Source of the DNA: a bacterium | Lineage (GTDB): Bacteria; Zhuqueibacterota; Zhuqueibacteria; Residuimicrobiales; Krinioviventaceae | Assembly (NCBI GenBank): GCA_963693055.1 | Contig: OY843751.1 | Span: forward strand, 2,528,001 to 2,592,000 | Direction: 5' to 3' | DNA: 64,000 nucleotides | In this document: positions 18,743 through 54,582 of the stretch, in pieces | Layout: every line of letters begins with the position of its first letter | How positions within the stretch are numbered: position 1 is the first letter of the stretch | Position numbers and translations under genes: made by a program | The notes under the pieces: model-generated | Told to the model about the DNA's origin: nothing | The model's input: only the letters and a program-made list of their open reading frames with translations | Databases searched by the model: none

Positions 18743-18788
18743 TTTATTGATTTAGTTATTTAAGCAATACATGAATCTTGTACGACTA

Positions 18789-23719: not shown

Positions 23720-23767
23720 GGAAACCCCTTGAAATAAAAAAGGACCATCAAATGATGATCCTTATTT

Positions 23768-24078: not shown

Positions 24079-24126
24079 GGAAACCCCTTGAAATAAAAAA
24101 GGACCATCAAATGATGATCCTTATTT

Positions 24127-24171
24127 TAGTAGCGGGGGGCGGATTTGAACCGCCGACCTTTGGGTTATGAG
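24127..24171 (-). repeat. att site (duplicated tRNA-fMet 3' part)
   Basis: Identical to 54506-54550; identity stops at the anticodon loop/stem. Confidence 0.93.
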
Positions 24172-26953: not shown

Positions 26954-27042
26954 ATAAAAAGGCGGATTGTATACCCACCTTTAGTTTAAAATTGAATACA
27001 ATGTTTTTAGATAAAAATTGTCAATGAACAAGAATCTTAAAG
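26954..27042 (-). promoter_or_regulatory. Putative CRISPR leader/promoter
   Basis: AT-rich; TTGACA on the minus strand at 27019-27024 followed by an imperfect -10. Confidence 0.4.
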
Positions 27043-28047: not shown

Positions 28048-28048
28048 T

Positions 28049-28963: not shown

Positions 28964-28972
28964 ATTTACTTG

Positions 28973-30785: not shown

Positions 30786-30806
30786 TTTAGATACTCCCTG
30801 TTATGA

Positions 30807-31322
30807 TTAATCCCTACCACCATGAAATTTGTGATATGCTACTACAGATTCGACGAATTTGCACAACATTTCATAATCCTCTATAGTATATATAAAATCA
30901 AAAAGTGGATTAATTACTTCAAAAAATGGTGTTACTTCTTTATTCTGTCTGGCCCTTGCGTTTGCAAGTTGTGGTTTAAGTAGAAAAATTTCTGGTTTGA
31001 TATTCCTTTCGAATAATTCTTGTGAATTTTCTTTTAATTTTACAGCTATAGTCCGTGCCTTGATATTTATCATGCTTTCATAAAAGCGCCTTAATTGAGC
31101 AGATTTTAGCCTAATGTCAGGGCTGGCGAGAATTTTTCCTAAAGCATAGCTACAAACCACTAACTTCTCGCCAGTTAAGATTTGTGCTAATGAAACTGCG
31201 CTTTCATTTTTTCCTATAATTTTATCAAGAATATTTCTTGCCTTGTGAAGGTTCCATTCCCTTGATAATCTCTCTTCAATAGGTTCATAATTCATTATGA
31301 TTCCCTCCTGATTTCGTAACAT
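30807..31322 (-). CDS. csm2: Type III-A small subunit Csm2 (Cas11)
   Basis: SAQLRRFY, LLKPQLA, FVESVVAYHKFHGG. Confidence 0.93.
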   Translation of the reverse strand: MLRNQEGIIMNYEPIEERLSREWNLHKARNILDKIIGKNESAVSLAQILTGEKLVVCSYALGKILASPDIRLKSAQLRRFYESMINIKARTIAVKLKENSQELFERNIKPEIFLLKPQLANARARQNKEVTPFFEVINPLFDFIYTIEDYEMLCKFVESVVAYHKFHGGRD

Positions 31323-33636: not shown

Positions 33637-33640
33637 ATAG

Positions 33641-34627
33641 TCATTCTGTAATAGTTACTCTTATTTTCCCCAACCCAAAACTTGTCCCTTTGCCGATGTG
33701 GAGGACCTGGCTCTGCAGCAGAAGGGGAGTGAATCCATTTATGTTGCCGGCAAGAAGGATATCGCCGATAAAGCCGCCGATCTCCATTTTTGTGTTTTGC
33801 CGGGAGCTGTACCGGTGCCAGTCCTGCCATTTCAGATGCGGGTCCATAATTGCCACTTCATTTGCCTGGACAAGATAGGGGTGGAAGTGCCAGTCGATTT
33901 CATTTTCCGGAGCGTAGAAATGCGCGAGCTCTAAAAGGCGCCGGAGCATTTTAAACACCAACAGTCGGAAAGAGAAATCCATTATATATTGGTCTTCGTA
34001 TTTTAATCGGGTAGGCGTGAGAAACCGGACTTGAACCTGGTCGTGCTCCGAATCCTCATAGTGCGGATGAGTGGGGATTGCCTGGGCGCAGAGGGATTCA
34101 GTTTCTCCTTTGTAGATCAGTGTTTCGGTAAAAGTGTTTTCTGCCAGGGAATGTTGTTCCGGATTTATCCAATAAACATTATGGAGTTGGAACGGCAATC
34201 GCTTTGATGAAAGTCCCCGTTTGGCCATGAGACTGATGGAGTAAATAATGTATGGATAAAGCGCTCCAATATTACCGAGGAGCGTCAGGGTAAAGCTGAA
34301 CGTATCGCCCTGGGCATACTCGGTTTTTTGATCAAAAGCGTCTATGATGTATGGCCGGGGAGAGGTTGGTAATTTGCTTAAAAAGGGCGGAGGGGTTCCC
34401 TCGACATAAGTCTCAAAAATTTTTGTGTAGGTACACTGGCTCCGGAACAGGCAGGATTGACAGGATTCCTGTTTTTTCTGAATGCAGACAGTCCGTTTTA
34501 ACGCACTGCCAAATGCTCCCCTCAGCATGGATCCCTTAATCCTGGGCAGTGTGCATACCTGTTCGGCCTGAAGAACGAATTTCAGTTTCAAATAGGGAAT
34601 AATAGGAAGACAGTAATCCACGGTCAT
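33641..34627 (-). CDS. cas6: Cas6 crRNA-processing endoribonuclease (Cys-cluster type)
   Basis: GSMLRGAFG, CI..CQSC....C, FLTPTRL, HIGKGTSFGLG glycine-rich loop. Confidence 0.93.
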   Translation of the reverse strand: MTVDYCLPIIPYLKLKFVLQAEQVCTLPRIKGSMLRGAFGSALKRTVCIQKKQESCQSCLFRSQCTYTKIFETYVEGTPPPFLSKLPTSPRPYIIDAFDQKTEYAQGDTFSFTLTLLGNIGALYPYIIYSISLMAKRGLSSKRLPFQLHNVYWINPEQHSLAENTFTETLIYKGETESLCAQAIPTHPHYEDSEHDQVQVRFLTPTRLKYEDQYIMDFSFRLLVFKMLRRLLELAHFYAPENEIDWHFHPYLVQANEVAIMDPHLKWQDWHRYSSRQNTKMEIGGFIGDILLAGNINGFTPLLLQSQVLHIGKGTSFGLGKIRVTITE

Positions 34628-34975
34628 ATCCCTTTTGTAAAAGATAAATGATAGTATTATTCAAGATGATTCAAATATAAAACTGCCCCAAAACAGTTCA
34701 GTTGTCCCACCAGTAACTGTTAAGGATATTCAAAATATAGAACATTTTAAAATATCAAATTCCGCCCATGGCACAATTGTGAGTCCGTGTAATTGTATAT
34801 AAGCATTTTCACAGTAAAGGTCAAGATGAAAATAAAAATTTTTCGAGTTTAGTGGTTTTATTGTGCAAGTGATCAGTATTCGGTTATCAGTTTTCAGAGC
34901 CGCCAGGGGTCCTTTTGTATTCCATGTTTTTGTATAGAGCTGACAGCTATTAGCTGATAGCTAACAGCTTGAAGC

Positions 34976-35008
34976 CAATCCCATCGTATTGATTAGGTCT
35001 ATTTACAG
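34976..35008 (-). repeat. Solitary CRISPR repeat (type B, lacking the last 4 nt)
   Basis: caatcccatcgtattgattaggtctatttacag is identical to array-2 repeats. Confidence 0.9.
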
Positions 35009-35772
35009 AGAAATGCATGGTTCTTTACTATGAGGTAGAGAAGGGTAGCGGCTTTTTCTTCAAAGCTGGGGTACAAATCCCTGTCTCCCAATGACTGACG
35101 GATTTGAGTGATAGCACTCTTGAACCCGTCACCCCGTTCATGTCCAAATACAGAGGAGTTAAAATCGCTTCGCATTTGATCAATAACGGCCATATAGTCT
35201 TTGTATGCCGGGTAGACAACGGATTTTTCCGTTTTACCTTTTTTATCCAGGGATTCATGATCATAATCGTCTAAAAGTTTCAGACCCTCTGCATACAAAT
35301 TTAACCAGTCGTAATCCTTGTTCGATGCTTTTTGCTCTATAGCCCGACTTATAATATGAATTCCATCCTTAAGATGTTGAACTTCTTGTTGTTTCTGTGC
35401 CAGTCTTTTTTCATTGATGGTATACCCTTGTACTAACAATTCTCTCAATCTTTTAGTTGCCCATTGACGGAATTGAGTACCTCGTTGTGACTTTACTCGA
35501 TAACCAACTGATATTATGACATCAAGATTGTAAAAAGCCACAGGTTTATCTGAATTTGCAATATGCATTTTTTGCATATTGCTTTTTTTTTCAAGTTCAT
35601 TTTCTTGAAATATATTATTCAGATGGCGGGAAATCACTGATTGATCTCGTTGAAACAACTGTGTTAATTGCTCCTGATTGAGCCAAACTGTATCCTCATT
35701 AAAACGAACTTCAACAGCAGTTTCGTTATCATTTGTTGTATAGATTTCAATTTTGTTTTCAGTATTATCCAT
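34999..35772 (-). pseudogene. RhuM-family protein fused to Fic/Doc, truncated at the Fic motif
   Basis: YNLDVIISVGYRVKSQRGTQFRQWAT (RhuM); LYPSFEEKAATLLYLIVKNHAF then CRISPR repeat. Confidence 0.88.
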
Positions 35773-35865
35773 TATGTGTCTTGTAAGATTAGAGTCGTGA
35801 TGAATGAGCCGTACATACAAGGTTATTTAACAAACTATTTGGAAACATTCAAGGGTATTTTGAAA

Positions 35866-37296
35866 CAGGGTACCCCCGATTTTTTTATTCGAGGGCCAAA
35901 AATAATTGATTTTTGTCACCGGCATGATTATTACACTTTAATTTTCTGAGCTTTATATTGGGTAAAATGATCCTTAATGCCTTTGCCAGTTTATAATAAA
36001 CAAACCCAATAAACTCGTTTAATTTCCTTCTATACACCAACGGAGCTTGAGATTGATCTAAAATATGTAAACAAATATTATCCAAATGACAATAGATAAA
36101 ACTCATGACATTCCAAAACAGGGCATTAAAATTTTTTAGCGCAACATACCTTTTAAGGCAAATGTCTTCAAGATGATAATCATTTTTTATTTGACGATGT
36201 ACCTCTTCAATTTTCCACCGGTAACCATAGCCTTCCATGGTAATCTCTATGGCCTCACGTTCAGTCTCTGCCGGTATAAAGCTTAAAAACCAGCTTTTGC
36301 CTTTGCCAGGTTCAGTGACTGAAATCAGCCATAATCCGGTGTTCATTGGGCCATCCCCATACTGCTTTGGCAGATATACCTTACGGGCACCGCATTGAAA
36401 ACATCGCTTTATCAGCCTGTTCCGGCGTTTTTTCTGCACGGTAATTTCAGTACTGGGACGGATTTTTTCGGCATATTTCTTTAAATTCTTCTTTACTCCT
36501 TGAACAAATATATCCCGGTACCCGGTTTGCCGTATTATAAAGTGTTGTTTTTGCTTAATCCATTTGTTCATCAGTTTGCTACGATCACCTCCGCGATCAT
36601 AAACAACTATCTGTTCTCCATGAATATGTTCTCGAATCGTGTCCACGGATTCGAGGATTTTCTTGTTCTCTGAAATACCTTTGCCTTCTTCCTGATCCGT
36701 CGCCCAAAGCGTACTCACCAGCGGCATGATGGATGTACCGGTTTTATCAACTCCAATGATATTCAGTTGCCAGTATCCATTCCCTAGTTCTTTGGTACTA
36801 CCATCATAAACACGATCAAGCCCTTCCATCTTTTCCGCATAAGGCTTGATTATATCACTCATATCTGCTATCAAGTATTTCGAATCCGAAAACCTTCTTT
36901 TGTTTATTTTCAGATGACTAATGGTTAATTCTCTGTCAAATCCTGGGCGGCCCAAGTGGCTAGACATTCGTTCTGTTGTCTTTTTTAGGCTCGTCTCTTC
37001 CTTTAGGGTTGATGCGATTTTATTTAAATGTACATGCCCGGAGCAAAGTATCCCATAATGCATGTCTCTGATAAATTTATAGTCCGGTCGGTTGAATTCT
37101 GCTTGATATTTCGCTGTCACTTGATTAAGTTTTACTTGGACTCGTTTTGTGATGTCCATGGGTTGCCTCCTATATTATGGTCTGTCAACTATAATGAGGC
37201 AACCTTTTTTTATTTTTACAAGCTTTTTTTGCTTCTATCTCCATTATTTTTTATTACTTACAGTAATATGATTTGTGATTTTTCGGGGGTGTCCTG
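35866..37296 (-). mobile_element. IS4-superfamily insertion sequence
   Basis: IRs cagggtacccccga / tcgggggtgtcctg; 10-bp TSD tattttgaaa at 35856-35865 and 37297-37306; ggttgcctc...gaggcaacc hairpin covers the RBS. Confidence 0.92.
35885..37159 (-). CDS. DDE transposase (IS4 superfamily)
   Basis: IADMSDI, YDRGGD, YGYRWKIEEVHRQIK. Confidence 0.92.
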   Translation of the reverse strand: MDITKRVQVKLNQVTAKYQAEFNRPDYKFIRDMHYGILCSGHVHLNKIASTLKEETSLKKTTERMSSHLGRPGFDRELTISHLKINKRRFSDSKYLIADMSDIIKPYAEKMEGLDRVYDGSTKELGNGYWQLNIIGVDKTGTSIMPLVSTLWATDQEEGKGISENKKILESVDTIREHIHGEQIVVYDRGGDRSKLMNKWIKQKQHFIIRQTGYRDIFVQGVKKNLKKYAEKIRPSTEITVQKKRRNRLIKRCFQCGARKVYLPKQYGDGPMNTGLWLISVTEPGKGKSWFLSFIPAETEREAIEITMEGYGYRWKIEEVHRQIKNDYHLEDICLKRYVALKNFNALFWNVMSFIYCHLDNICLHILDQSQAPLVYRRKLNEFIGFVYYKLAKALRIILPNIKLRKLKCNNHAGDKNQLFLALE

Positions 37297-37332
37297 TATT
37301 TTGAAAGGGGGAATACATTTTGTGTGAAAAAT

Positions 37333-37674
37333 AATCCCATCATAGTTAATAGGTCTTTCCAGTCCATTATCATGGATAAAATGTCAGGTCGTTCAAAAGG
37401 TTTTGGGTCTCAATCCCATCATAGTTACCAGGTCTTTTCCAATCTTGTTTGAGGGGCTCCTGATCTTGCAAAAACTTATGGTCTCAATCCCATCGTATTG
37501 ATTAGGTCTATTTACAGTAGGCTATTTCGAACAAGACGGCCAGACGCGAGCACAATTGTTGTCTCAATCCCATCGTATTGATTAGGTCTATTTACAGCTA
37601 TTAGATAAAGAGGGTAGTATGAAAAAGAAAGCTGGAATAGTCTCAATCCCATCGTATTGATTAGGTCATTCCAC
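37333..37674 (-). CRISPR. CRISPR array 2: 5 repeats / 4 spacers, hybrid of repeat A and repeat B (CTGTAAATAGACCTAATCAATACGATGGGATTGAGAC)
   Basis: Repeats at 37333 (partial A), 37407 (A), 37481, 37561, 37640 (B). Confidence 0.92.
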
Positions 37675-37861
37675 GTGAGACGTGAAACGTAAGACGGTAA
37701 ACGATCTTTTGACCTTGCGAAAATGTCAAAGAACGGGGGAGTTGTCAGTCATCGGTTATCAGTTTTCAGAACCACCCGGGGGTTCGTTGTATTCCATATT
37801 TCTTGAGCTGAGCGTCAGTCGGTCCCTGAGTAGACCGCCGCCAGGCGGACGTACCGAAGGG

Positions 37862-37894
37862 CAATCCCATCGTATTGATTAGGTCTATTTACAG
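37862..37894 (-). repeat. Second solitary type-B CRISPR repeat
   Basis: Identical 33-mer to 34976-35008. Confidence 0.9.
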
Positions 37895-38262
37895 TCAATC
37901 AGATTGGATATTACATCATAACCGCATTTGTGTCATTTGTTCTCACCAACCTGGGATGGATACTATTCAAAAAGGACAAGACAGAACCGGTTGAAAAAGA
38001 CCATCTTGACCATCCTTGTCAAAAAATTCTGATATTGGAACAGGATTTTAAGAACCACAAAGATGTGGTCAAGAACCGGATTGATTTGAATGAACGTCGG
38101 TTGAACGCACACGCGAAAGACCTGGATGTATTGCGGGAAACCATCGTGAGACAGGAACAGAACAATAACCATCTGAACGAGAAAGTAGATGAAATCAAGG
38201 CCGAGATTAGTAAAATAACAGATTTTTTATACAGTGGTAAATGGAAATCGGTTAAGTCATGA
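37895..38262 (+). CDS. Phage-like TM + coiled-coil protein (holin/hemolysin-like), probably 5'-truncated by the repeat
   Basis: Open frame NQIGYYIITAFVSFVLTNLGWILF starts right at the repeat junction; coiled-coil tail. Confidence 0.5.
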
Positions 38263-40837
38263 GCAACCAGGTACTGAAAATCACCCACGTTAAAGGCCTG
38301 GTGACCCACGCTGATCCGCAGGACATACCGGTGGATGCTGTGAGCCGTTTGGCCAATCTGCGGCCGGTAAACGGTAAACTGGTGCGGACATTCGGATACG
38401 GACAGAACTTTTCCCGGGACCGGCTGGCAGTACTGCGTCAGGAGGGCAAAAGCGTATACTGGGACGATTCCAAAGTGTGGGACGATGGTGACTATTGGCT
38501 GGACAATACCGACATTGATGAAAGCCTGGGCGATCCTTTTGACCATGTCATTGTATTTGAAAACCGTAACCTGGGCTACTGTCCTTATGCCACCGGTGAA
38601 GGTTATGTTATTATTGCCTATCTGGTGGATACGGACACCGGCCTGGTGACCTTGAAGTACTGGGACGGGGATTCCTGGGAACTGTTGGCATCCACCGGTT
38701 TGATGGTCAATGCCCTGGGCAGTTATTACCACCATAAAGGCAACAATCCGGTCATTCTGCACAACGAGATATTGAGGATTTTACCGGGAGCAACCGGCAA
38801 GATCAACGGTAATAACGCCGAAGGCATCTGGATCGGATATATAGACCGGGATATCTTTGACGAACACTATACCGCAGGGACATCGGAAGAAGTGAGTGAA
38901 GAGACCGCGGATTATGTCAAAGGCTTTTACAATTACAGCAACAGCGTACCGGCGCCGGATATCTCTGCATCCGGATTGGACCCGGTATTGACCGATGAAC
39001 CGACCGGCGGCAGTCTGAACCCGGACGGGAATGAACTGGTCTATTTTTACAGGTTATCCTATGTCTATGACGGGGTAAACGAAAGTGCCTTGTCCGAGAC
39101 CCTGTCCAAATCTTTTAAACAAAACACATTTTTGAAAATGGCTTTGACCTTTACCAAAGCCGAACACAATAAACGTATCACCGCAGTAAAAATTTATCGA
39201 AGCAGCTATGCCGATGCCGGATTTCAGCAAATCCACACCCTGGACTTGACCCGCAAGACCGATAAACTGAAAAGCGTGGACGGTATGGCCAGCGGCCTGA
39301 GCCGGTTTTACATCCCGGGACTGGCCTATTATAATTTCGATAATACCGAAAGCTACCGAATCGGTGTCCGGGTACCGGGCGATACCGGCGCATTCACCTA
39401 TAACGCCATCTCACCGCCAAGCGGTACCGGTAATGTCATATTTGTAACATCCAGTACCCTGAGCGGGGATTACTGGGACTATGAATGGATCCTTGAATAT
39501 TATGACGCCAGCTGGGTGCCAATTGACAGTGGTACATCCGGTGTGTTTGCCGGTACCCATACCTTTATATCCACAGAAGTTGACCTTGGTAATGAAAACC
39601 AGGCCGGAGGAATACTGTACTGGCCATCCATTGCTTACGAGATCAAGGAATCGGTGAACCGTGCCATCCGAATATACATTGCCATACATATACCTATACC
39701 GACCAGACCATGAACATTTACTCCATTACAACCGGTTTGTACTGTTATTATAAATATCCGGGAGTTGGCAAAGAAGTACTGTACTTTTTTGATACCGGGC
39801 TGTTGGCCGGTGAAGCGCATCCTTATGCAACCGAGGTTTCCAACAAGGTCAACGGTAAATTTGCCATCTATGCGTACGGCAGACTGTTCCAGTACAGTGT
39901 AGTGCTTGACCCGGATTACAAACAGGAAGTGCATATGGACTAGCTGACCTTTTCCGAACTGGGACAACTGGATGTAACACCCGTCGGTAATGCCATTGTG
40001 CCGCCGGACCGCACCGGTGGAGCCGGTACCGGTATGGCTATGGCTTTTGGTTCCATTATACTGATGAAAAAACAGGCCCTGTTCCGGCTGGACATCAACG
40101 ATCCCGCTGATCCGGTAACCTGGTCCATCAAGGAAGCCAATTTCAGCCGCGGCAATGTCGCGAAAAAATGTTTTGTGCAGGTAGGTGAAACATTGTACAT
40201 CTGTTCCCATGACGGCATCTATTCAATCGACCTCAATGTACTGACCGCGGCAGACGAAACCCCGATGCTGCATAACCGCATATCCGAAGACATCAATGAT
40301 ATATACATGTCTCTGAGCGATTCCTCCGAGAAACCTTACATCTCTGCCGGATATGATCCGTTTCACAGCGAGATCGTGTTCCAGTTAAAACCCGGACAGA
40401 CCTATGCTTACAATATCCTGGAACAGAGCTGGCGCCAGAGCGATACTGACGCGGACATGGCCCTGGCAGTCAATGACCAGGACGGCAACCTGTTGATTGT
40501 GGACAATACCCGACAGCTGCTGTTGTCACCGGTGGTGAAAGAGGAAAGCGGGTTCTGTGTGCGCAGCAAGAACGTTCTGCTCTCATACGAACGGGCCAAA
40601 GTGGTGCGTTACGTCAAGGTGCGGTACCGGTCGGAGGAGAAACTGATCATCAATCTGTACGCCGATGGTAACACCGAAACCCCGGTGAAAAGCGGGACAC
40701 TGTCGGAATTGTCCGAACCCGGCTGGAAAGGTGTGTCGCTGCGGTATTATTGTCATTCATTTTACATTGAAATCTGTTCCGAGAGCGAGGGCGTCCCGGA
40801 AACCGAAATATATGAAATCGTTGTTGAACACGATTAA
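38259..40837 (+). pseudogene. Phage tail/stabilisation (nozzle-like) protein, broken by a frameshift near 39700 and an in-frame TAG at 39941
   Basis: ORFs 38259..39713, 39710..39943 and 39998..40837, the last two in one frame; NLRPVNGKL, YRLSYVYDG..ES, IKIYRS, FSELGQLD motifs typical of podovirus-like tail proteins. Confidence 0.65.
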
Positions 40838-40851
40838 AGGAGATTTTAACC

Positions 40852-41526
40852 ATGGCCGATGGTGATATAACCAAAGATTTATTGAGTGAACTGGCATTAC
40901 AGCTTGAAGACGCGGACGAAGTGAAATTTACCCAGGCTGCCAAGCTCCAGGCCCTGAACCGCTCACAAGTGAGGGTGGCCCAGATGCTGCACGACGCCTA
41001 TTTGACTGAATTCCAACATGTGGATGAAGACGTGGACGCATCATCCAGGATCATTGATATATCTCAATTAAACGAGGGAAAAGGCGTTTTCAGGGGTGGA
41101 GAAGGCATTGTCCGGGTGCGGATCAAGATCGGTGGTGATGACGCAAAATTGAAATGGGCCACGGAACTGGATTTTAAAGAGGACATCAAGCGCACCCAGA
41201 ACACGCTATTGGCCGGATCGGATACCAATCCGCTGTATTATGTGTTTAATGGGCATATTTATATTCTGGTGTCCACCTATGACGAAACTACTGCCAATGT
41301 GTACTATTTGCAAATGCCGCCAAACATGTCAGAGAGTGTTGATCCGATCCTGAATCCTTCCTTACACCAGATACTGCTGGACCTTGCCGAATCCATCTGC
41401 TGGAAAATGGACAATCAACATAACCGCAGTGCAGAGGCCCGCACCAGTGCTTTTGAAGAGATTAAGGTTTTGAACGGCCGGTACACCAATCCCGAAGGCA
41501 TCGGCACAAGCAGCCGGAGGAGATAA
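40852..41526 (+). CDS. Putative phage head-tail adaptor / tail tubular protein
   Basis: ALNRSQ..., PLYY, YYLQMP...PILNPSLHQILLDLA pattern; strong RBS; phage context. Confidence 0.6.
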   Translation: MADGDITKDLLSELALQLEDADEVKFTQAAKLQALNRSQVRVAQMLHDAYLTEFQHVDEDVDASSRIIDISQLNEGKGVFRGGEGIVRVRIKIGGDDAKLKWATELDFKEDIKRTQNTLLAGSDTNPLYYVFNGHIYILVSTYDETTANVYYLQMPPNMSESVDPILNPSLHQILLDLAESICWKMDNQHNRSAEARTSAFEEIKVLNGRYTNPEGIGTSSRRR

Positions 41527-41531
41527 ATCGC

Positions 41532-42305
41532 ATGGACCCCATTACAATCGGCGCATTGGTCAAAGGCGGCAGTGCTCTCGGCAAATACGCCTATAACAAA
41601 TGGTTCAACAAACAGAAGAATTTTGATGATACCCCGGGCGGCCGTCGAATGAAACTGCTGGCCAAAGAAGGAGTGTACAATCCCCGCGTCACCCGCACTA
41701 TACTCGGACAGGTGGGCAAAGCCACCGGCAGTACTGCCCAGATTGCCAAAACCAACCTCAAAGGTAATTTGATCGCCAGCGGTATGGAAAACAGCATTGC
41801 CGGACAGGGACGTATAGCCAGTATCGACAGCCAGCGTATGGAGAAAATAGGGGACGTGGCTGCCGATCTGGCCACCAAAAACGAAATGTCCAAAGTGGAA
41901 GCGCAGGACAAATACACCATGGCCAAACAGGGATACCAGGACAGAATCAAAGCCATGGAACAGGAAAATACCGGCAACCTGGTGAGCGGACTCATCAATA
42001 CCGCGGGCAGTTATGTCATGGGCAAGGCACAGCAGACCGGTATGGAAAATATTGATTTTTCGGATCCTTCTTCCCTGACCCAGTGGGTTGCTTCACAACC
42101 TGACCAGGCCAAAGCCATGTCCCAGCTCCGGGACCTGGCTTATTCCAGTTATTACGGCGGTAAAGGCGCCAGTGCGGTGAGTGAACAGGACATATTGGGA
42201 CTGCTACAAAAAGACCCGGCAAGGGCCGGACAGACCATACAGATTTTGAATGAACTGGGCATGCTGCCGAAACGGATACTGAACTATTTAAAAGCCGGGG
42301 AATAA
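41532..42305 (+). CDS. Putative internal virion / DNA-ejection protein
   Basis: MDPITIGALVKGG start, Gly/Ala-rich helical composition, position after tail genes. Confidence 0.55.
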   Translation: MDPITIGALVKGGSALGKYAYNKWFNKQKNFDDTPGGRRMKLLAKEGVYNPRVTRTILGQVGKATGSTAQIAKTNLKGNLIASGMENSIAGQGRIASIDSQRMEKIGDVAADLATKNEMSKVEAQDKYTMAKQGYQDRIKAMEQENTGNLVSGLINTAGSYVMGKAQQTGMENIDFSDPSSLTQWVASQPDQAKAMSQLRDLAYSSYYGGKGASAVSEQDILGLLQKDPARAGQTIQILNELGMLPKRILNYLKAGE

Positions 42306-42390
42306 CACACATGGCAGAGAAACTGGACCCGAAAAAGCTTGAGAAACTGGTCGGTCTGTTCCAGTCCCCGGTAGACGGCCTGGAGGCCGC

Positions 42391-42567
42391 ATGAAATACA
42401 AAGCCAGGGAAAAGCTTTCGGCGGTGGTGCGAGTATACGTATTGGGAGAAAAAGTCGCGGTCGTCTGCCGCGACTTGCACATCTCCCGCCAAACCTGGTA
42501 CCGCTGGGAAAAAGAGTTTCGCTCTGCAATTGGAAAGATTTGGGGTGGGCTGAAAAAGTTGAATTAA
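42391..42567 (+). CDS. Small HTH protein (transposase-type HTH), not in the ORF track
   Basis: GGAGG RBS; MKYKAREKLSAV...VAVVCRDLHISRQTWYRWEKEF; overlaps a 27-codon stub at 42311-42394. Confidence 0.6.
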   Translation: MKYKAREKLSAVVRVYVLGEKVAVVCRDLHISRQTWYRWEKEFRSAIGKIWGGLKKLN

Positions 42568-42717
42568 ATCAAATGGTTGAATAGAAAATCTGATTCCCTT
42601 TTTTATTTAAAATAATTCATATTTCAATTGCATGTTTCTACGAAAATACATTTATTAAAATATTCAAACATTAAACTGATACGGGGTATCTTGGGTGGAA
42701 AACTTTTATATGTTATG

Positions 42718-42783
42718 ACGATCTATACTCATGTACCTAACAATGGCGATTAAGGTATTCGCAGCCCAGTTGATGATCTGTAG
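42718..42783 (+). pseudogene. intI: Integron integrase C-terminal remnant
   Basis: Translates TIYTHVPNNGD*GIRSPVDDL*, matching the IntI end TMIYTHVLNRGG.GVRSPLD. Confidence 0.75.
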
Positions 42784-42969
42784 CAAAGTGTAATCTGGAA
42801 TACAAGTCGTATAACATAAAATTATGGTCATTGTTTTTTTATGATAACATCATGTTTTTATTGTAATTGAGTCAGAATATCGTGATTTGTTAAACGACAA
42901 GTATTTGCATTCTATAATTGGTTATCAAACTCGTTAAATACTATGTTAGAATGAAAAAGGAGAAATCGA

Positions 42970-43872
42970 ATGTCAGAGGACAATCAGAAAACTACCAAGT
43001 TCGATGCAGCAGCATCCAAACTCAGATCGGTGACTAGCGGAGCCCTGAGACTTACGGTTATCATTCTCTTTGCCGTCGTGGCATGGCGAATAGCTTGGTC
43101 GAATTTCAGTTTGGATCTCAGTAAATTCGATTTTACTGATCTTCTGGCTATGATTTTAGCTCTCTTTGCGATGGGGATGTCGGTGGCTTTTTACTTTAAG
43201 TCCACGGATTCAAGCAATCAATTCTACGACAACATTTACAATTTCACGCAAAAGACATCTGAAATTCTTGGCCGTATTGAAGAACGATTTGGTGAGCGAC
43301 TTAAGCATCTTGACGAAGGCTATGGGAGAATGCAGTCGCAGTTCGATGGAATTGCAAAGACACCAGGCGAGATTGAAAAGGAAGTTAAAGAAACAGAGGG
43401 AAAAGAAGAGCAAGAAAAAGAGAAGCTCGAAGAAGCCAAAAAGGCAATGCAAGAGATGATGGAGACGCTTGCTGAAAAAGCAAAATTACAGCAAAAAGAA
43501 AAAGAGGAATTCTACCAGAAGATGGGTGAACTCGCAACCGAGAGAGACTTGGCACAACAAAAACTTCGCGAGCTTGAAGAAGATCGTGACGGGATGAGGC
43601 AACAACTTCATATGATGGAGCGGGACATGATGGAGGATCCAGAGCTACATAATCCAATAGTAATGGAAATACTTCGTCACCCTGAAATACGACATCTACT
43701 TCGAGATGGTACTCCTGCCCGCATCATTCGAAGACAGGCTCAGCGTCTTTTTTCTGAGATGCCGATACAATTTCTCAAACAACTGCGCGAAGCCGGAATA
43801 ATCAACGAAAATAACGAGCTAACCACCGCTGGCGGGCTAATGCTGCGATCGATGTCACGACGATATAGATGA
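42970..43872 (+). CDS. Cassette 1: two-TM coiled-coil protein
   Basis: Two hydrophobic helices, long E/K-rich coiled coil; followed by attC. Confidence 0.75.
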   Translation: MSEDNQKTTKFDAAASKLRSVTSGALRLTVIILFAVVAWRIAWSNFSLDLSKFDFTDLLAMILALFAMGMSVAFYFKSTDSSNQFYDNIYNFTQKTSEILGRIEERFGERLKHLDEGYGRMQSQFDGIAKTPGEIEKEVKETEGKEEQEKEKLEEAKKAMQEMMETLAEKAKLQQKEKEEFYQKMGELATERDLAQQKLRELEEDRDGMRQQLHMMERDMMEDPELHNPIVMEILRHPEIRHLLRDGTPARIIRRQAQRLFSEMPIQFLKQLREAGIINENNELTTAGGLMLRSMSRRYR

Positions 43873-43944
43873 AGATTCTAACAAAGGCATCCACACGTAC
43901 GCGCGCCGGTGATGCCAGCCGTTAGCTTTTATGGAAGATAGACT

Positions 43945-44598
43945 ATGGAAATTGCTAAAATTATTCTAGAATACTTAAAGGTTACTATCTGGCCTATCAC
44001 AACCTTTATATTATTACTAATTTTCAAAAAAGATATTTGTAAAATTTTAATGCGATTGAAAAAAGCAGATTTACCTGGCGGTATATCTCTTGAAACATTT
44101 CCAGAACAAATTGAAGAAGCAAAATCTTTATTAATAGAAGTTAAGGAAGAAAAGAAAGAAGAAGATAAATTAAGAAAACAAATATATGCTACAATTCCAT
44201 TAACAGAAGCAAACGCAAAAATGATAACATTAGGTCTTGCACCATCACCTTCAGGTCTTGAACTTGATAAATACAAACAATTAGCTGAACGAGATCCAAA
44301 CTTAGCACTTGCAGGACTCAGGATGGAACTTGAAATAATGTTGAAAAATTTGGCAAAAGGCTATAAAATCAATATTAACAAAAGGGCTTCAACGACGAAC
44401 ATTACTAAGGAATTGAAAGAAAAAAATGCTATAACTAAAAATCAATCTGATTTAATACACACAATTATAAATTTAGCAAATGCCGCTGTTCATGGTGTTA
44501 AGGTTACAAAGTCTCAGGCCAATGATATCCTACAAATATCAGAAACATTAAGAGATCAATATATTAATTGGCTGAGTTGGGGCTTTACTGATAAATAA
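43945..44598 (+). CDS. Cassette 2: N-terminal TM + HEPN/DUF4145-like domain
   Basis: WPITTFILLLIFK TM; LRMELE...LANAAVHG (RxxxxH-like, R replaced). Confidence 0.6.
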   Translation: MEIAKIILEYLKVTIWPITTFILLLIFKKDICKILMRLKKADLPGGISLETFPEQIEEAKSLLIEVKEEKKEEDKLRKQIYATIPLTEANAKMITLGLAPSPSGLELDKYKQLAERDPNLALAGLRMELEIMLKNLAKGYKININKRASTTNITKELKEKNAITKNQSDLIHTIINLANAAVHGVKVTKSQANDILQISETLRDQYINWLSWGFTDK

Positions 44599-44758
44599 TA
44601 AAGCTAACAATTGTTTCCAGCGGATCGCTAAAGCGATCCACTAAATTCCACGTGGACGTGGAATTCGAAATACAACATTCGGGACGCTTGCTCTTGGCTC
44701 GCGACCGCTGAAACAGACGTTATAAGTAATCTCGAGCCTCGCGCAAAGGAGTATAAAT

Positions 44759-45318
44759 ATGAAATGTTCCGTATATATAGCAACAAGTGTAGATGGGTAA
44801 TTGCAACACCTGATGGAGGTGTTGATTGGCTGCATACAGCAGGTAATTTAGAAGCTGACATGGGCGATGAAGATATGGGGTTTCGTGATTTTATGGACTC
44901 CTTAGACTGCATGATAATGGGGCGTAAGTGCATGGAAATGATTTCCAATATAAACTTAACCCCAGAACAATGGATTTATGGTGACATGCCTATTTTTGTA
45001 CTCAGCAATACAGTTAAAGAGGCTCCTGAAAATCTTCGAGGGAAAGTTGAAATGTATTCCGGCAATATTAAAGAATTAACTTTAAAGCTCGAGAAGAACG
45101 GATATACACACGCATACATTGATGGTGGTTCCACTATTACATCGTTTCTAAATCATGGCCTAATTAGCGAAATGATTATAACCAAAGCCCCTGTACTTTT
45201 AGGCGAAGGTCTTCCCCTTTTTGGAAAAATCAACAAAAAGCTAAAGTTAGAAAATACTGAAGTGAAATCGTTCCCAAATTACTGGTATCAACTTAAGTGT
45301 AGCGTAAATTACTTATAA
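44759..45318 (+). pseudogene. Cassette 3: DHFR-like / RibD C-terminal family protein with a frameshift
   Basis: MKCSVYIATSVDG then TAA; a single missing base restores DG(Y)IATPDGGVDWL...MGRK...DGG...PVLLGEGLPLF. Confidence 0.85.
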
Positions 45319-45403
45319 CAAATGCATGCACCGGAGCTTCCCGCCGCTGTCGCTCTAGGAACCCCGGTGATGCTGGTGTTAGGCTTTAACAGGGAGGTGG
45401 TTT

Positions 45404-45877
45404 TTGATCCAGATCTACAAGAATCTTTATGTTGGTGAAGATTTTGAGTGTTTTGATGATAAAGAGAAGTGGGTCACTGTCCATGCTTGTAAATCTCCAT
45501 GTCATCAGCGAATCATAGGCTATAGAGGTAGTCTTCCATCGAACCATCCACACTATTTAGTTTATGAAAATGATAGAAACTTGTATTTAAATATTATTGA
45601 TCCCCCCATCCCACTCTTCAAACTAGAACTTTTTACAACTTTTCTTAAGTTCGGAGCGAAGCATTATAAAGAGGAAAAATTAATTTTCATTCATTGTAAT
45701 CGAGGTGAGTCTCGAGCACCATCGTTAGCACTCCTCTTTTTAGCAAAACATTTAAAGGCTATTGACAACAATTCATACCAAACTGCGATGAGTGAATTTG
45801 CTGCAATTTACCCCCAGTATAATCCAGGAAATGGGATAAGAAAATTTCTGACTGAAAACTGGACAATAATAAAATGA
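45404..45877 (+). CDS. Cassette 4a: dual-specificity/tyrosine phosphatase
   Basis: IHCNRGESRA (HCxxGxSR); NLYVG; YNP. Confidence 0.85.
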   Translation: MIQIYKNLYVGEDFECFDDKEKWVTVHACKSPCHQRIIGYRGSLPSNHPHYLVYENDRNLYLNIIDPPIPLFKLELFTTFLKFGAKHYKEEKLIFIHCNRGESRAPSLALLFLAKHLKAIDNNSYQTAMSEFAAIYPQYNPGNGIRKFLTENWTIIK

Positions 45878-46596
45878 TAATGATTTTTTTTGATGAAACT
45901 GGTGATTCAAAATTTAAAGAATATTTTGGCATTTGTTGCGTCCGGATTAATTCCGCATTCTATACACAAGTTAAAAGAGAATTTCAAAGTATCCTTGAAT
46001 CAAACCAATGGGACACAAATATTGAGTTCAAAGGATCGCATTTATTTTCAGCAAATAGTGGCGATACTAATATTACTATCGATCAGAGGATCAATATAGC
46101 TGAATCCTTAATAGGTTTAAATACTGCGAATAAAAATGCACGGATTTGCTTCTCCTATTTTAGCAAAGTATCAACCGACCATAGAAGTGATTATTTAGAA
46201 TATTTGCCTATATTATTGGATAAGGCCCTTCCAAAAGTAAATCATAAAAACGGGAAGGATATTGTTACAATCCATTGCGATAATAGAAGCGATATTTCAA
46301 TCAATGAGGTCCGAGAGAGCATTATGCCGATCATATCATCAAATGAATATACATTATTTGAAGATGTCTCGATGCCGAATTCTCGATTTGAAACTGTAGG
46401 CTTATTATACGCTGATTTAATCGGATATTTGATCGCCAGAGTTGAAACAATTAGTTCAGATGCGGAATTGTTCGAAAATATTCCACAGGATCAATGGGAA
46501 AACAATGGTAAGGTTAAAAAATTGAAATCATCAACAAAGCTATTGCAGCAGATAAAAAATATAAATTTATACAAAGTTAAAGGTAGTCAAGGCTAA
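45874..46596 (+). CDS. Cassette 4b: DUF3800-like protein
   Basis: IFFDETG, EFKG, CD, LLYADL motifs; ATGA overlap with 4a. Confidence 0.65.
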   Translation: MIMIFFDETGDSKFKEYFGICCVRINSAFYTQVKREFQSILESNQWDTNIEFKGSHLFSANSGDTNITIDQRINIAESLIGLNTANKNARICFSYFSKVSTDHRSDYLEYLPILLDKALPKVNHKNGKDIVTIHCDNRSDISINEVRESIMPIISSNEYTLFEDVSMPNSRFETVGLLYADLIGYLIARVETISSDAELFENIPQDQWENNGKVKKLKSSTKLLQQIKNINLYKVKGSQG

Positions 46597-46750
46597 CAAG
46601 CTGCTGCACGCGACGGCTGGCGCCGTCGCTTTTGACAGCTTCGCTGTCAAAAGCTTTGGTAGATTTCGTGGCTTATGCTGATTAGCTTCCAGCCGCCGCG
46701 CGTGAGCAAAGTGTTAGCTGCTCAAGGCATTTCCAAAACAAGGAGATTTA

Positions 46751-48421
46751 ATGAAATTACCAGAACCACAAACAAGAACATTTTCTAGTCTAATCTCAGA
46801 AATAGAGAAAGGCCAGATTAAAATCCCGCAGTTCCAAAGAGACTTTGTGTGGACAATTCAAAAGTCTGCTGGGTTAATTGATAGTGTTATTAAAGGTTAT
46901 CCGATAGGCACTTTTATTTTTTGGAAAACGAAGGACAGGCTGCGCTCTGTTAGGGATATAGGAATTCAAGTTTTGCCGGATCCTGAACTGGGTGAATCTG
47001 TAGATTATGTACTTGATGGACAGCAACGATTAACAAGTTTGTATGCTTGCTTGAAAGGGGTAAGCATAAAACGAGAAGATAGCAAGAAGATTGATGACTT
47101 TTCAAAAATATATATAAATTTAGAATCTGATGAAGATGAAAAAATAGTTACAACGGAAGTTGATGAAGAAAAAATCGATCACCATATAAGTATTCTTGAT
47201 TTGCTTACGGGAGATTTCACCGTTTTAGCATCTTATCCTGCTGAATACCATGAAAAATTAAAGCTCTACAAGAATAGGATTGAGAGCTACCAATATTCGA
47301 TTATTCAAGTTAAAGAAGCACCCATTGATATTGCAACAGAAATATTTACAAGGATTAACGTTGGAGGAAAACCCCTTTCCTTATTCGAAATAATGGTTGC
47401 AAAAACATTTGATTACGAAAAGGATTTTGATTTATCTGAGAAGTTCGAACAACTAATTGATAATCTTAAGCCTCACGATTACGAAACAATATCTGATGCT
47501 ACAGTATTGCAAGTTGTTTCAATGATTATTTCTAAAGAATGCAAGCGTCAAGTAATATTGAAGATAGATAAAACTAAGTTTATTGATACCTGGGATAGGG
47601 CTGTTGACTCAATTGAAAGAACGGTTGAATACTTTAAAAGTTACTACAGAATCCCTGTTTCTCAGCTACTTCCATACAATGCATTAATAGTTCCTTTTTC
47701 ATATTTCTTTTTTCATCATAAAGATAAACCTACAGGGGATAAACAAAAATATCTACAAGACTTTTTTTGGCGATGTTCGTTATCAGGTCGTTATTCATCT
47801 TCTGTAGAGAGTAAATTAGCTCAGGATATAAAGAGAATTGAAAATATTCTTGAAGATAAATTGCCGATTTATGATTGGTCAATTGATTCCTCTAAGGATT
47901 TTATTATTGATAATGGCTGGTTTAGTGCGGGAAGGAGCTATATTAAGGCAATTTTATGCATATACGCATATCATCAGCCGAAATCATTTATTGACAACTC
48001 TCTGGTGAACATTAGTAATTACTGGCTAAAACAGGCTAACAGTAAGAACTATCACCACTTTTTTCCTAGGGCGTATCTAAAAAAGCAAGGAGAGGAGGAA
48101 CACTATATTAACCATATATTGAATATCACAATAGTGGATGATTTTTTGAACAAGCGTGAAATAGGTGCAAAAGCACCTTCAAAATACATGAGCCAGTTCA
48201 AAAAGATTAATCCTGAAATAGAGTCCTCAATGAAATCACATCTTATTAATGATTTATATGGTTTTGGTGTTTTGGAGGATGACTATGATTCTTTCTTCGA
48301 AAGTAGAGCAAATTTGCTCAATAAGGAAATAGAAAAACGAATCATAAAGCAAGAAGTTGATAGAAAATCGCAGCCAGATATTCAGGATGATTATGAGGAA
48401 GAACCAACTGTTACAGAATAA
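46751..48421 (+). CDS. Cassette 5: GmrSD-like restriction protein (DUF262 + HNH-like domain)
   Basis: IPQFQRDFVW, LDGQQRLTS, IFTRINVGG; C-terminal HHFFP...N...N. Confidence 0.85.
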   Translation: MKLPEPQTRTFSSLISEIEKGQIKIPQFQRDFVWTIQKSAGLIDSVIKGYPIGTFIFWKTKDRLRSVRDIGIQVLPDPELGESVDYVLDGQQRLTSLYACLKGVSIKREDSKKIDDFSKIYINLESDEDEKIVTTEVDEEKIDHHISILDLLTGDFTVLASYPAEYHEKLKLYKNRIESYQYSIIQVKEAPIDIATEIFTRINVGGKPLSLFEIMVAKTFDYEKDFDLSEKFEQLIDNLKPHDYETISDATVLQVVSMIISKECKRQVILKIDKTKFIDTWDRAVDSIERTVEYFKSYYRIPVSQLLPYNALIVPFSYFFFHHKDKPTGDKQKYLQDFFWRCSLSGRYSSSVESKLAQDIKRIENILEDKLPIYDWSIDSSKDFIIDNGWFSAGRSYIKAILCIYAYHQPKSFIDNSLVNISNYWLKQANSKNYHHFFPRAYLKKQGEEEHYINHILNITIVDDFLNKREIGAKAPSKYMSQFKKINPEIESSMKSHLINDLYGFGVLEDDYDSFFESRANLLNKEIEKRIIKQEVDRKSQPDIQDDYEEEPTVTE

Positions 48422-48693
48422 ACTGCAGCTAACAATCACATTCACTCGGACAGCAAAAAGCGCCGCTTCGCTCTGCCTTTTGCTGCCGGTGATGTGAAGC
48501 GTTATAAAGAACACACACTAAAGTAACAACTCTTCCAACATCCCCCTTATTTTTCCTAAACTTACCTCATTTTTCACACCAATTCTGTCACTCCTTGCAC
48601 TACAATATATAGATTATTCTTGCATCAAAGGAACCATATATAATATATTTCATTTTATTCCATAAACATAGGTGTAAACGAAAGGAGAATCCT

Positions 48694-50458: not shown

Positions 50459-53400
50459 ATGAAAAAGCTATTTGCAGCAGTCGTATGTCTGTTACTGATT
50501 TTCACATCCATCCTTGCGCAAAAACCACCACTGAATGTTGACAGTCTTAAGATCGGTGAAAAGAACGTCACCGGTTTTTTTGACGCATTGGATGAAGAAA
50601 ACAATCTCACATCTGTTGGAGTAGGAGATACATCTATATCAAGGGGCAAACTCAAGGACAGCGCAGTCGATTCCAGTAAATTGGATACAGACGCAGTCAT
50701 TACCGACAAGATCAAAGATGACGCCATCAGTAGTGATAAGATCAAAAAAGACGCCATTTCCAACAACCATATCCAGGACCATGCAGTTGATTCCAGCAAG
50801 ATCGCAAACAAGGCGGTCAATAGTGATAAAATAGATGATGATGCCGTAACCGCGAACCAGATCGCGGCACTGGCCATTCAAACCGCGCATCTGGGTCCGG
50901 GAATTGTGGTCAATACCAAACTGGCTGATGGCGCGGTATTTGGGGACAAAATCGCGAATTACGGTATCACCAGCCTGAAAATGGCCAATGCTTCCGTGTA
51001 TGAACGGGCCATTGTGGACGAAGCCGTGACTACCGATAAAGTCAAGGATGGTACCCTGACCGAACAGGACCTGTCCCCGGAACTGCTTGCAACCCTGAGC
51101 CTGAAAAGCCGGTTGACACTCAATCCGGATGATCTCACCCTGGAATTATACATCACAGACCCGGACACCTTTTTTCGGGTGAAAGAACTGGGGATATTGA
51201 CCTCACACCTGGCTGACGGAACGGTCACCTCTGCCAAGATCGCGGACGGTACCATTACCGAACAGGACATCGGCAACCGGCAGGTGACCGAAGACAAACT
51301 CGATGACTGGTCCGTCTCCACTGTAAAAATGAGAGACCGGGCCGTTACCACCGTCAAGATCGATACTGGCGCTGTTACCAATCCCATCATAGCCCATGAA
51401 GCGGTTACCACGGACAAAATATCCGATTTACAGGTTACTACTAAAAAGATTGCAGATGAAGCGGTCACGGTTGACAAACTGGATGAAGACGCGGTTACCA
51501 CTCCCAAGATCAAAGACCGTAACGTCACCGAAGCCAAACTGGCTGACGGAGCGGTCAATTCAAGAGGGATCGAGGACAGCAGTATAACCCGTCAGGACAT
51601 TGATTATATCATTAACAACATGCTTGACCGTGCGGTAATTGGGAACTATCTGCCAGACGATATTACCCTGGAACTGACGGTAATTGATAATGATACCCTC
51701 TGGCAGGTCAAAGATGCCGGTATAACCGCCGGTAAACTGGGTTCCGGGGCAGTAATGAATGAAAAACTTGCTAATGATGCGGTAAGCACAGAAAAGATAC
51801 TGAATTACACCATTCATCTCGCGGATTTACACCCGGAAGTTCTTGCAGGTTTTCTGACTGCCGATTCCATTTATAACCTGGGCAGTAATATCCTTTTCAT
51901 TGAACCGCATGACGATATCCAGGCTGTTATCGATACCATGACAAACCGGTCCGCGTCAAACTGGTACACATTGCTGTTGTCACCCGGTAGACATACCCTA
52001 ACCCAAACCCTTGATCTTTATCCATATATTACCCTGATGGGACTGGGAGACCCGGATGATACAGAGATCTATGCGAACATGGATTCATCCCTGGTTGAAG
52101 CCGATTCCGGACTGGTTACCATCAAGAATATGACCTTTCGCAATGATGCCGTATTAACCACCGGTGGTTTGTCCTGGGGACCGAAAAGTCCGGTACGTAT
52201 CAATATTTCTTCCAGTCTGAATACCATCCCCAGACCGGTTACCTTGGAAAACCTGAATATCAATTATTATTGTAACAACGTCGGCGCGGACATTTCCGGG
52301 ATATATCTGAACGGTTATTTTGACAGCTATCCTGACTGGGGAACGATCATCAGAGACTGTTTTATACAAAGACTGAGCGCAGGTGTCGGCAATTATGGTA
52401 TACTGATCAGTGCCACCGGCGGCAGCAGCTCGATCAATTCACTGGCCAACAGCTTGATTATTGAGGATTGCAGAGTTTACAATTGTCATTATGGAATATC
52501 AATATCCAATGTGCAGCAGGAATTCGTTTATATCAAGGACTGTATCACCAATTTATGCAATATCAGTATCGGGGTGAGCTCTACATCCGCGGAAAACACC
52601 GGGGACAATGATTGTATTGTCAATATATTGGGTGGTTCGATTGTCAATGGTCCCAGTTATGATATTGAAGCCAACGGCAGCTCAAACTGTTATGCAACCG
52701 TTAATGTCAAAGGCGTACGTAATAATCCGGCCAACGTCTATGACGGTACCTATGCGGTTATAAACAACCTCGACAATCCCGAAGGAGGGGTAACAACTGT
52801 CAGTATCCTGGACAACACCATTGCAATGAATGATATCTCACTGCCAGTACAGGAAGAAATTCGGGATTCCTCCCGTGTAACCTTCCAGGCAGACACATTC
52901 AAAGTCGCAAGTGATACGGTCAAAGTCTATGCGGATGCCGACGGCAACCTGGTGCTGTATGACAAACTGAAAGGGGAAAGAACATTGACCGAACTGACAG
53001 AAGCGTCCAGCGGCGCCGGTCTTACCGGTAATGTCATGTAACTGGAACCTGCTGACGATATCGAAGATTCGCTTGAAGCGTTGGCCGCCACCGCATCGTC
53101 ACCCTGGACCATTTTGATGGCGCCCGGGAAATATACCTTGTCCGGTGATATTACCATCCCGTGCGGAAACTTTTCCATAATTGGATTGGGAGAACATCCG
53201 TCCCAGACCGAAATTTATTACAATGCTAATGATAATATCCTCTCTGCAGGCGGAAACAACTGGGGACTGTATAACCTGAAACTGCACCGGAACCCCACAT
53301 CCAGCAATACGTCTTATATGATCTATGCAACCTATTCAGACGCAGCGAACCCTGGACAGTTCCGGATCGAAAACTGTGTTATAGACGATTCCACATCCGG

Positions 53401-54277
53401 AGGAGGGGCAATACTAATCCAGAACAAACAGGCCGTCAATTCCGTGGTCCGTAATTGCGAGTTTTACCAGCGTTATGGGACAAGGGCCAATGGAGAAGCG
53501 ATATCTGCGGAATGGGCGGCCGGTGCGGTTTAATTTCCCGGGTCAGATTATTCTTTTGTTGTTTATGGCTGCAAGTTTGACAACTGGGATTATGCCATTA
53601 ATCATAACGGTTCAGTGCTGCATAGTTACTATGAAAACAATGTGTTCAGTTTTTGTGATTATGGTTTGTATCTTTACGCCAGAAGTTCATCAAATGCCAC
53701 CAATTTTCATCTTGAAAGCAATACCTTTATGGGCTGTGATGATGATGTCTATTATAACAACAGCAGTACAAACATTCTAAACGTTTGGGACAATCAATCA
53801 GAAGGAAAGAGAAACCGGTCTTTTGCGTCTGGTGACAATTTCAATGTGTTATACCAGCATGCCTATGTCAACTTTTATCTCAACTATGGTACCGACACCA
53901 TTACACCATCCCTGACACAGAATACCTGGGCACGCATTGCGGGACATTCTGGCAGTTATAATTATGGTGGATATGTGGAAGGGGATTCGTGTAAGATCGA
54001 CGCTGATGGATTTTACAAACTGGATGCTACTTTTACCTTTACCGGTACGGCATCTGATGTTTATGAATTTGCACCCATGGTAAGCGGTTCGTTGAATATG
54101 AACTGTGCCGTATCCTGTGCAACAAGCGGGACCGATAAAGTCACTGTATCTATGAATGGAATCCTTATTATAGGTGCTGATCAGTGGGTGAGTATGTGGG
54201 TACGGAATACCGGAGACGGTGACAGTCCAACCATTTTACAATCAAACTGGTTATTGACCAAAATACGGGATAATTAA
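50459..54277 (+). pseudogene. Tail fibre/spike-like protein with signal peptide, VTxxKIxD repeats and two beta-helix-like domains; two in-frame TAA stops
   Basis: ORFs 50459..53041, 53081..53533 and 53615..54277 share one frame; internal duplication LFIEPHDDIQ..LLLSPG / M*LEPADDIE..ILMAPG. Confidence 0.75.
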
Positions 54278-54481: not shown

Positions 54482-54508
54482 GTTCTTGTTTTTTAAGGCT
54501 TTAAGTAG

Positions 54509-54582
<74 letters not shown>

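Follow-up and report, generated by a model that had tools for sequence, protein, structure and literature searches.

Reverse integrons of the Treponema denticola type are defined by an integron integrase gene (intI) and gene cassettes that run in the same direction (PMC7691350) and have been reported as paraphyletic (PMC4889954); clusters of attC sites lacking integron integrases (CALINs) hold about five attC sites on average, and intI pseudogenes lie near 15 of 279 of them (Cury et al., 2016, PMC4889954). Integron parts were recovered in just 21 phages when 10,705 genomes were screened, the cryptic prophage M16-3 being among the carriers, and for cryptic prophages the authors could not tell whether the link to an integron predates or postdates decay (Qi et al., 2023, PMC9892861). 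Anti-phage integron cassettes have furthermore been reported in preprints (bioRxiv 2024.07.02.601686; 2024.07.02.601719). The locus described here is an array of five integron cassettes inside a decayed, podovirus-like prophage, located in a window (the whole 64,000-nucleotide stretch that was analysed) corresponding to positions 2,528,001-2,592,000 of a complete 6.5-Mb genome, designated G000 in locus labels. The array is a reverse integron whose intI has been almost wholly deleted, and we consider it probable, with appreciable room for doubt, that it was brought by a second phage-like element, a fragment of which took the place of most of a giant virion gene of the decayed prophage.

Comparison with the described systems reveals both familiar and unfamiliar traits. 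As in Treponema denticola-type reverse integrons, intI and cassettes share one direction and the attachment site (attI) and a putative cassette promoter (Pc) lie 3' of intI; unlike them, the present integron belongs to a clade of one KSB1 family that has an attI of its own, was seen at no fixed chromosomal locus, lies mostly in or beside prophage-like DNA and has lost intI by deletion in ten of 12 copies; the clade was defined in an IntI tree of 25 rows, none from Treponema. The five attC sites, the intI relic and the lack of an intact IntI nearby recall the pseudogene-bearing CALINs of Cury et al. (2016), from which the array differs in that attI and the upstream segment are retained and in that intact orthologues show how the CALIN arose. 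A cassette array and attI among virion genes are likewise described for the Shewanella cryptic prophage M16-3, although intI is divergent there. The reverse layout and the occurrence of integrons in cryptic prophages are already published; what is new is that one clade of reverse integrons is found repeatedly at phage slots and has repeatedly lost intI. A literature search with most subscription journals outside its coverage found nothing on integrons of KSB1 and nothing that links a clade of reverse integrons to prophages. Taken alone, the window locus is a dead relic of known parts; that one clade recurs with differing cargo between shared phage genes makes the before-or-after-decay question testable, with the integrase and attI named, and the series from intact to deleted intI shows one route of CALIN formation.

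The five-cassette array is real. A preliminary description, made from the letters of the window, had pointed to five attC sites with paired core and inverse core and had named the failure of an attC covariance model as grounds for rejecting them. When such a model was trained on 17 unrelated sites taken from Shewanella, Vibrio, class 1 and class 2 integrons (chosen by a heuristic from fetched records) and run with filters off, these five sites took ranks 1-5 of 12 window hits, at full length, with exact coordinates and on the bottom strand, scoring 20.3-34.7 bits against 12.0 bits for the next hit, and the prediction was thereby borne out. All five fold into bottom-strand hairpins of attC type, and each core agrees with its own inverse core (14 of 15 variable positions), a result equalled in only 2 of 120 re-pairings. 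With filters on, the model is weak, retaining attC5 alone in the genome-wide search and yielding 3 hits in 15 related loci; attC counts for the relatives therefore derive from the heuristic. Applied to the whole genome, the heuristic returned 44 hits, among which the five in the window form the sole same-strand cluster. The cassettes have a guanine-plus-cytosine content of 0.33-0.45, compared with 0.46-0.49 in the flanking phage DNA, and the array has the makeup of a CALIN, namely five attC sites within 4.6 kb and no intact IntI nearby. The junctions between integron and phage DNA are abrupt, as they would be in an assembly chimera of the two, yet that explanation is refuted by a 13,520-bp short-read contig (37867-51386) that crosses both junctions with zero differences, and by contigs from two more runs that do the same (all three runs derive from a single sample, which is probably the source sample); its probability is close to nil. 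As a separate observation, attC4 (46591-46719) aligns over its full length with an attC of G004:C29 (L048 5439-5566), which points to a common cassette pool.

Upstream of the array, the preliminary description had recognised a C-terminal IntI remnant, co-oriented with the cassettes and ending about 160 bp before the first GTT, and had conceded that a better alignment to XerC/D would speak against it. The remnant does lie in the orientation of the cassettes, its end is 161 bp from the GTT at 42945, and the IntI model matches it (E 0.0025). Aligned with BLOSUM62, the 49-residue remnant frame reaches a score of 105 with a related intact IntI, compared with 39 for each of the host proteins XerC and XerD and shuffle maxima of 39-46, and neither the XerC nor the XerD profile model lists it; a XerC/D origin is ruled out by these scores and models. 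A core of the form GTTRRRY stands in attI ahead of the first cassette and matches the inverse core of attC1 at 7/7 positions. The complete window genome, in which a search for an intact intI had been proposed, contains no IntI above the cut-off of the family model (TIGR02249, cut-off 265). An intact IntI adjoining the array, as in a complete integron, is thus lacking in the window and present in L078 and G004:C3. Since the genome has no intact IntI, the window copy is likely frozen as a CALIN, in keeping with the earlier proposal of a frozen, inverted-integrase integron: the intact orthologues share the layout, and the integrase was lost here. Because attI and the cassette promoter lie 3' of intI in the reverse layout, loss of intI would lock such an array without silencing it. 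The AT-rich segment that precedes the remnant also occurs without attI before unrelated genes (G000 4,400,980-4,401,052; L051, L052, L053), where it possibly marks platforms reduced to a bare promoter.

It could be argued that the array remains active through an IntI that an incoming relative provides in trans: attI looks intact, as do the five attC sites, copies of cassette 3 that are about 90% alike and free of its frameshift lie on other contigs of the sample, and 17 of the 41 genomes searched have an IntI above the cut-off. The window genome itself is not among these, however, and no excision joint at a cassette border was seen in the contigs of three runs of one sample, contigs being prone to drop rare variants; continued activity is accordingly judged very unlikely.

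The case for a reverse integron is supported by related copies of the platform, that is, of the intI end and attI. Twelve copies were counted at 11 loci, ten in five genomes of one KSB1 family (two in G000, one in G001, three in G004, two in G014 and two in G017) and two in the metagenome contig L078; this count excludes G004:C29:97055-97103, an incomplete attI-like match in L109 and hits limited to the intI 3' end. Among 43 genomes of the order, attI-spanning hits are confined to this family, and a metagenome scan returned six loci, five of which repeat the G014 loci. The attI 27-mer has 0-3 differences in 11 of the 12 copies, and the DNA beyond GTT differs. Two copies have an intact intI; the remaining ten hold differing pieces (codons 296-330 in the window, 144-165 plus 310-330 in G017:C51, and 179-326 in G014:C27), no piece being detectable by DNA match in four copies, and most copies retain the upstream AT-rich segment. 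In L078 and G004:C3, the same spacer and attI, 69-73% identical to those of the window, sit at the 3' end of an intact IntI (460.6 bits against TIGR02249 in L078), and the integrases of these two loci together with a partial one from G014 form one clade (support 100/100) apart from other KSB1 IntIs. In the intact orthologues and the window remnant alike, intI is co-oriented with the cassettes and attI lies at its 3' end, which is the arrangement of a reverse integron. At seven of the 11 loci, the platform is embedded in or adjoins genes with matches to phage families or to G000 prophage genes (the window, G001:C3, G004:C3, C9 and C29, G014:C27, and L078), a count made on loci of this clade only.

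Several of these copies have peculiarities of their own. The second G000 copy (4,678,718-4,679,251; L033) is a more decayed set of helix-turn-helix (HTH) gene, intI end and attI, in which no attC was found and in which the next two genes are, by eye, a methyltransferase and a DUF262/HNH nuclease. Tandem platforms occur in L078 (3505-7000): an intact intI and its attI come first, then a single cassette whose attC is truncated, and after it another promoter-like segment with an intI end and attI behind it. In G001 (L050 10177-15718), attI is followed by five genes (amylase-like, two ROK, YdjC and pentapeptide), and no attC was found.

The preliminary description had placed the array among phage virion genes, which is correct for the outer neighbours (SU10 adaptor, LPD38 and tail-fibre genes) and not for the direct ones, an HTH gene and the truncated start of a phage gene. 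Judging by their homologues, these direct flanks stem from a second phage-like element. On the left, the junction is at about 42360-42380, where the match to the HTH module begins; in L078, the gene order is primase/polymerase, excisionase, HTH and intact intI, and the HTH gene of that locus is 47% identical to a gene of the G010 prophage. On the right, the truncated gene start spans 48694-48786, with the junction at about 48731-48746; the same right-flank stretch follows the array in G017:C51 and is weakly matched in G001:C3, both with other cargo, and full-length homologues of the right-flank gene are found in viral clusters as well as on viral contigs. Both flank genes also occur in the G010 prophage, where lysis and modification genes occupy the interval and attI gave no match. 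A 484-aa IntI above the cut-off, of another clade, ends that prophage (L104 7487-8941), and in G017:C51 (L043 1340-1410) a relic of a transfer RNA (tRNA) 3' end was seen by eye after the truncated phage gene, suggesting an att site. Derivation of the HTH gene from an IS3 element was considered and dropped, the matches being weak and the homologues phage-context genes.

What the integron block displaced can be gauged from the viral contig G167 (48 kb, 80% complete, its 17,001-22,278 left out of the comparison), which has nozzle, adaptor and ejection genes in the same order as the window, plus an LPD38 frame of at least 3841 aa; in another relative, this frame measures 3395 aa. An interval of about 15-16 kb in G167 corresponds to 6.4 kb in the window, occupied by the integron block; by this comparison, the block sits where most of the giant virion gene would have been. 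The LPD38 fragment itself occurs in none of 41 related genomes other than the window genome. The host element is a dead, decayed podovirus-like prophage: intact virion, packaging and replication genes do not stand together between its att sites, terminase, portal, capsid and replication genes had no match among the scanned island open reading frames (ORFs) between the att repeats, and a narrow terminase-family search was empty. Contig depth is similar in island and flank, a comparison that says nothing on induction.

These findings bear directly on the earlier suggestion that the podovirus-like phage, while viable, used the array as its own bay for defence cargo. Virion genes do lie on both sides and cassette 5 belongs to a defence family; nevertheless, the 6.4 kb present here stand in place of about 15-16 kb of the G167 virion region, only about 530 final codons are left of a gene of 3395 to >3841 aa, the nozzle-like gene is in three pieces, packaging genes were not detected, the direct flanks belong to another element, the LPD38 fragment has no counterpart in the 41 other related genomes, and none of three viral relatives, G167 included, has an IntI match. 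The suggestion is already largely refuted, and we assign it a very small probability.

From the attC sites, attI, the intI 3' end, the layout of the orthologues, the foreign flanks and the lost virion DNA, all of them observed, we infer the following history and present state. The ancestral element would have been of the type excisionase - HTH - intI - attI - cassettes - late phage gene, and cassettes would have been loaded at attI through ordinary attC x attI recombination, with the platform then aboard a phage-like element. This second element may have entered the podovirus-like prophage at tRNA-Met by insertion or by recombination, deletions then trimming both; an internal deletion would have taken about 300 intI codons, sparing both ends of the gene and leaving its old promoter pointed at the array. 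The cassettes are predicted to be locked yet still expressible, and to form part of a host defence island together with type III-A CRISPR-Cas (clustered regularly interspaced short palindromic repeats and associated proteins). Phage flanks common to copies with different cargo point to carriage before decay, and the integron family likely travels on temperate phages, as gene neighbourhoods suggest. In two G004 prophages, for example, terL and portal stand on either side of the platform; the flanks of these two copies are 89% and 93% identical, their inserts (4.7 and 6.9 kb) are unrelated, and intI is intact in one of them. A distantly related G000 prophage has the same terminase and portal genes 12 bp apart (the terminase being named by eye). 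Two further G000 prophage regions, at 2,848-2,893 kb and 4,135-4,147 kb, have portal genes 39-49% identical to that of G004 and no attI match.

The principal competing account holds that the platform is a host element, or moves by other means, and that its association with prophages arose after decay, dead prophages being tolerant of insertions and rearrangements. In its favour, all host elements examined are decayed or fragmentary, the platform has three different left neighbours (HTH, the terL region and an ABC-transporter gene), IMG/VR holds no match, and Qi et al. (2023) leave such an order of events open for cryptic prophages. It is less readily reconciled with the recurrence of the same kind of phage-derived flanks, with differing cargo, across genomes of two genera, with one intact intI behind primase, excisionase and HTH and another between terL and portal, or with 11 loci among which no shared chromosomal locus was seen. 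Arrival after decay is, on balance, unlikely, albeit to be taken seriously.

Carriage by a second phage-like element must also be weighed against observations that do not favour it. The 12 copies are kin rather than independent, and they lie, where examined, in decayed or fragmentary elements; three of the 11 loci have relics only, such as HTH (the G000 second copy, G014:C73 and G017:C51), and one, G017:C17, near a contig end, has no phage trace. The portal genes of the two G004 prophages are broken off at an identical base, where a CRISPR-repeat-like sequence lies, so that the two copies may descend from one already-defective element. Searches of IMG/VR with the attI pattern and with IntI gave no true match (one 27% hit for IntI), those with the adaptor, the G004 terminase and a single flank protein gave no intact phage carrying the integron, and the same was true of GenBank phages searched with both flank proteins. 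Viral contigs that have flank genes lack the platform (23 loci held none; HTH hits in IMG/VR were weak and generic). Finally, a consensus promoter scan of 42300-43000 found no plus-strand site and left the TATAAT element unflagged, and both promoters accordingly rest on conservation. As a side observation on the G004 elements, one of the two prophages continues after the portal break with a long array and cas genes.

A broader proposal is that the clade is a native organ of temperate phages or phage-like elements of one KSB1 family, seated at defined slots (after the HTH gene, or between terL and portal), loading cassettes while mobile and handing them to the host, with intI deletion repeatedly favoured as the reverse layout locks an array at which two promoters are aimed. 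This proposal is tentative, and possible rather than probable; if true, phages would be the normal vehicle of one integron class, and the origin of many CALINs would be explained.

Table 1. Features of the tRNA-Met island and its integron array (window coordinates; strand as read in the window).
Feature	Position	Strand	Remarks
Left att repeat	24127..24171	no strand	45 bp, identical to 54506-54550 in tRNA-Met
Island tyrosine integrase, phage type	24254..25321	-	PF00589; phrog_1
Island left half: CRISPR array, type III-A cas genes, RhuM-like gene, insertion sequence, mini-array	25450..37894	no strand	
Nozzle-like virion gene	38259..40837	+	In three ORFs (484, 77, 279 aa); relatives 832-873 aa
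Head-tail adaptor, SU10 adaptor family	40852..41526	+	PF24175; 45% to viral contig G167
Ejection-protein-like gene	41532..42305	+	39% over residues 2-168 to G167; function proposed from gene order
Short ORF, likely first codons of giant virion gene	42311..42394	+	Weak start-region match to G167
Small HTH gene	42391..42567	+	58 aa; 83% aa identity to gene before intact intI in L078
AT-rich segment	42591..42712	+	Retained 5' of decayed copies; probably the former promoter and leader of intI
intI 3' remnant	42712..42783	+	~24 codons with an internal stop; similarity continues more weakly back to about 42674
intI-attI spacer	42784..42921	+	Conserved 20-mer 42802-42821; conserved TATAAT element, candidate Pc
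attI	42922..42951	+	Core GTTAGAA at 42945; conservation among copies stops at GTT
Cassette 1	42945..43920	+	976 bp; 300-aa membrane/coiled-coil protein, no family, coiled-coil matches only
attC1	43876..43927	+	52 bp; 20.3 bits
Cassette 2	43921..44718	+	798 bp; 217-aa DUF4145 protein
attC2	44602..44725	+	124 bp; 27.4 bits
Cassette 3	44719..45377	+	659 bp; RibD_C/DHFR-fold gene, frameshift near start
attC3	45313..45384	+	72 bp; 23.2 bits
Cassette 4	45378..46712	+	1335 bp; 157-aa phosphatase-like (HCxxGxSR) and 240-aa DUF3800 genes
attC4	46591..46719	+	129 bp; 23.1 bits
Cassette 5	46713..48500	+	1788 bp; 556-aa GmrSD/BrxU-like DUF262 protein
attC5	48427..48507	+	81 bp; 34.7 bits
Upstream region and first codons of phage gene	48548..48731	+	Gene start 48694; 77% nucleotide identity to G017:C51
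Giant LPD38 virion gene, C-terminal ~530 codons	48747..50360	+	In-frame stop near 48770
Tail-fibre-like gene and subsequent fragments	50459..54277	+	
Right att repeat	54506..54550	no strand	Inside tRNA-Met (54508-54582, minus strand)

With regard to cargo, the preliminary description had expected defence functions, an expectation that holds for one of the six cargo genes, a GmrSD/BrxU-like gene with a strong defence-family match, and not for the other five, which lack such a match and one of which is frameshifted. This gene, in cassette 5, is on present homology the likeliest anti-phage cargo. Its product has the DUF262 N-terminal domain (PF03235, 110.7 bits against a cut-off of 33.2) and PADLOC matches to PDC-M55C (203.7 bits) and HEC-05 (128.1 bits), which liken it to the GmrSD/BrxU type IV restriction nucleases; it departs from them in being distant (E 2e-13) to PDB entry 7p9k, listed as a DUF262 protein, and in that Pfam returned no nuclease family at its C-terminus, where a His/Asn motif was noted by eye. 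Entry 7p9k is one that we take to be BrxU. The anti-phage cassette libraries of the preprints cited above resemble this array in their low-GC cassettes that include a restriction-like gene; the present array differs in that a strong defence match is limited to that single gene, in its small size and in having no integrase. The DUF3800 gene of cassette 4 has 108 homologues; its pairing with the phosphatase gene as a conserved unit was considered and rejected, the pair not being kept in any of the three other genomes that have the DUF3800 gene.

The island that houses the array extends for 30,424 bp between the 45-bp repeats at 24127 and 54506, at tRNA-Met, which was the sole return of an Rfam scan. 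Its genes are ordered as integrase, CRISPR array, type III-A cas genes, insertion sequence (IS), mini-array and then virion genes, and six further copies of the IS reside elsewhere in the genome. The type III-A CRISPR-Cas system (25450-37894), with two arrays, shares the island, and a related array with a repeated element of ~130 bp is located at genome 2,797-2,799 kb. When 24 CRISPR spacer-sized stretches were compared with the phage loci of this analysis, short chance matches only were obtained. Phage genes are cut exactly at CRISPR-repeat-like sequences in three places (window 37863-37930, L041 13900-13925 and L049 14575-14610); in the window, phage DNA begins directly after the last mini-array repeat, within a reading frame. 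Lastly, a 207-bp tandem duplication (99%) at 23590-24155 takes in part of the att repeat.

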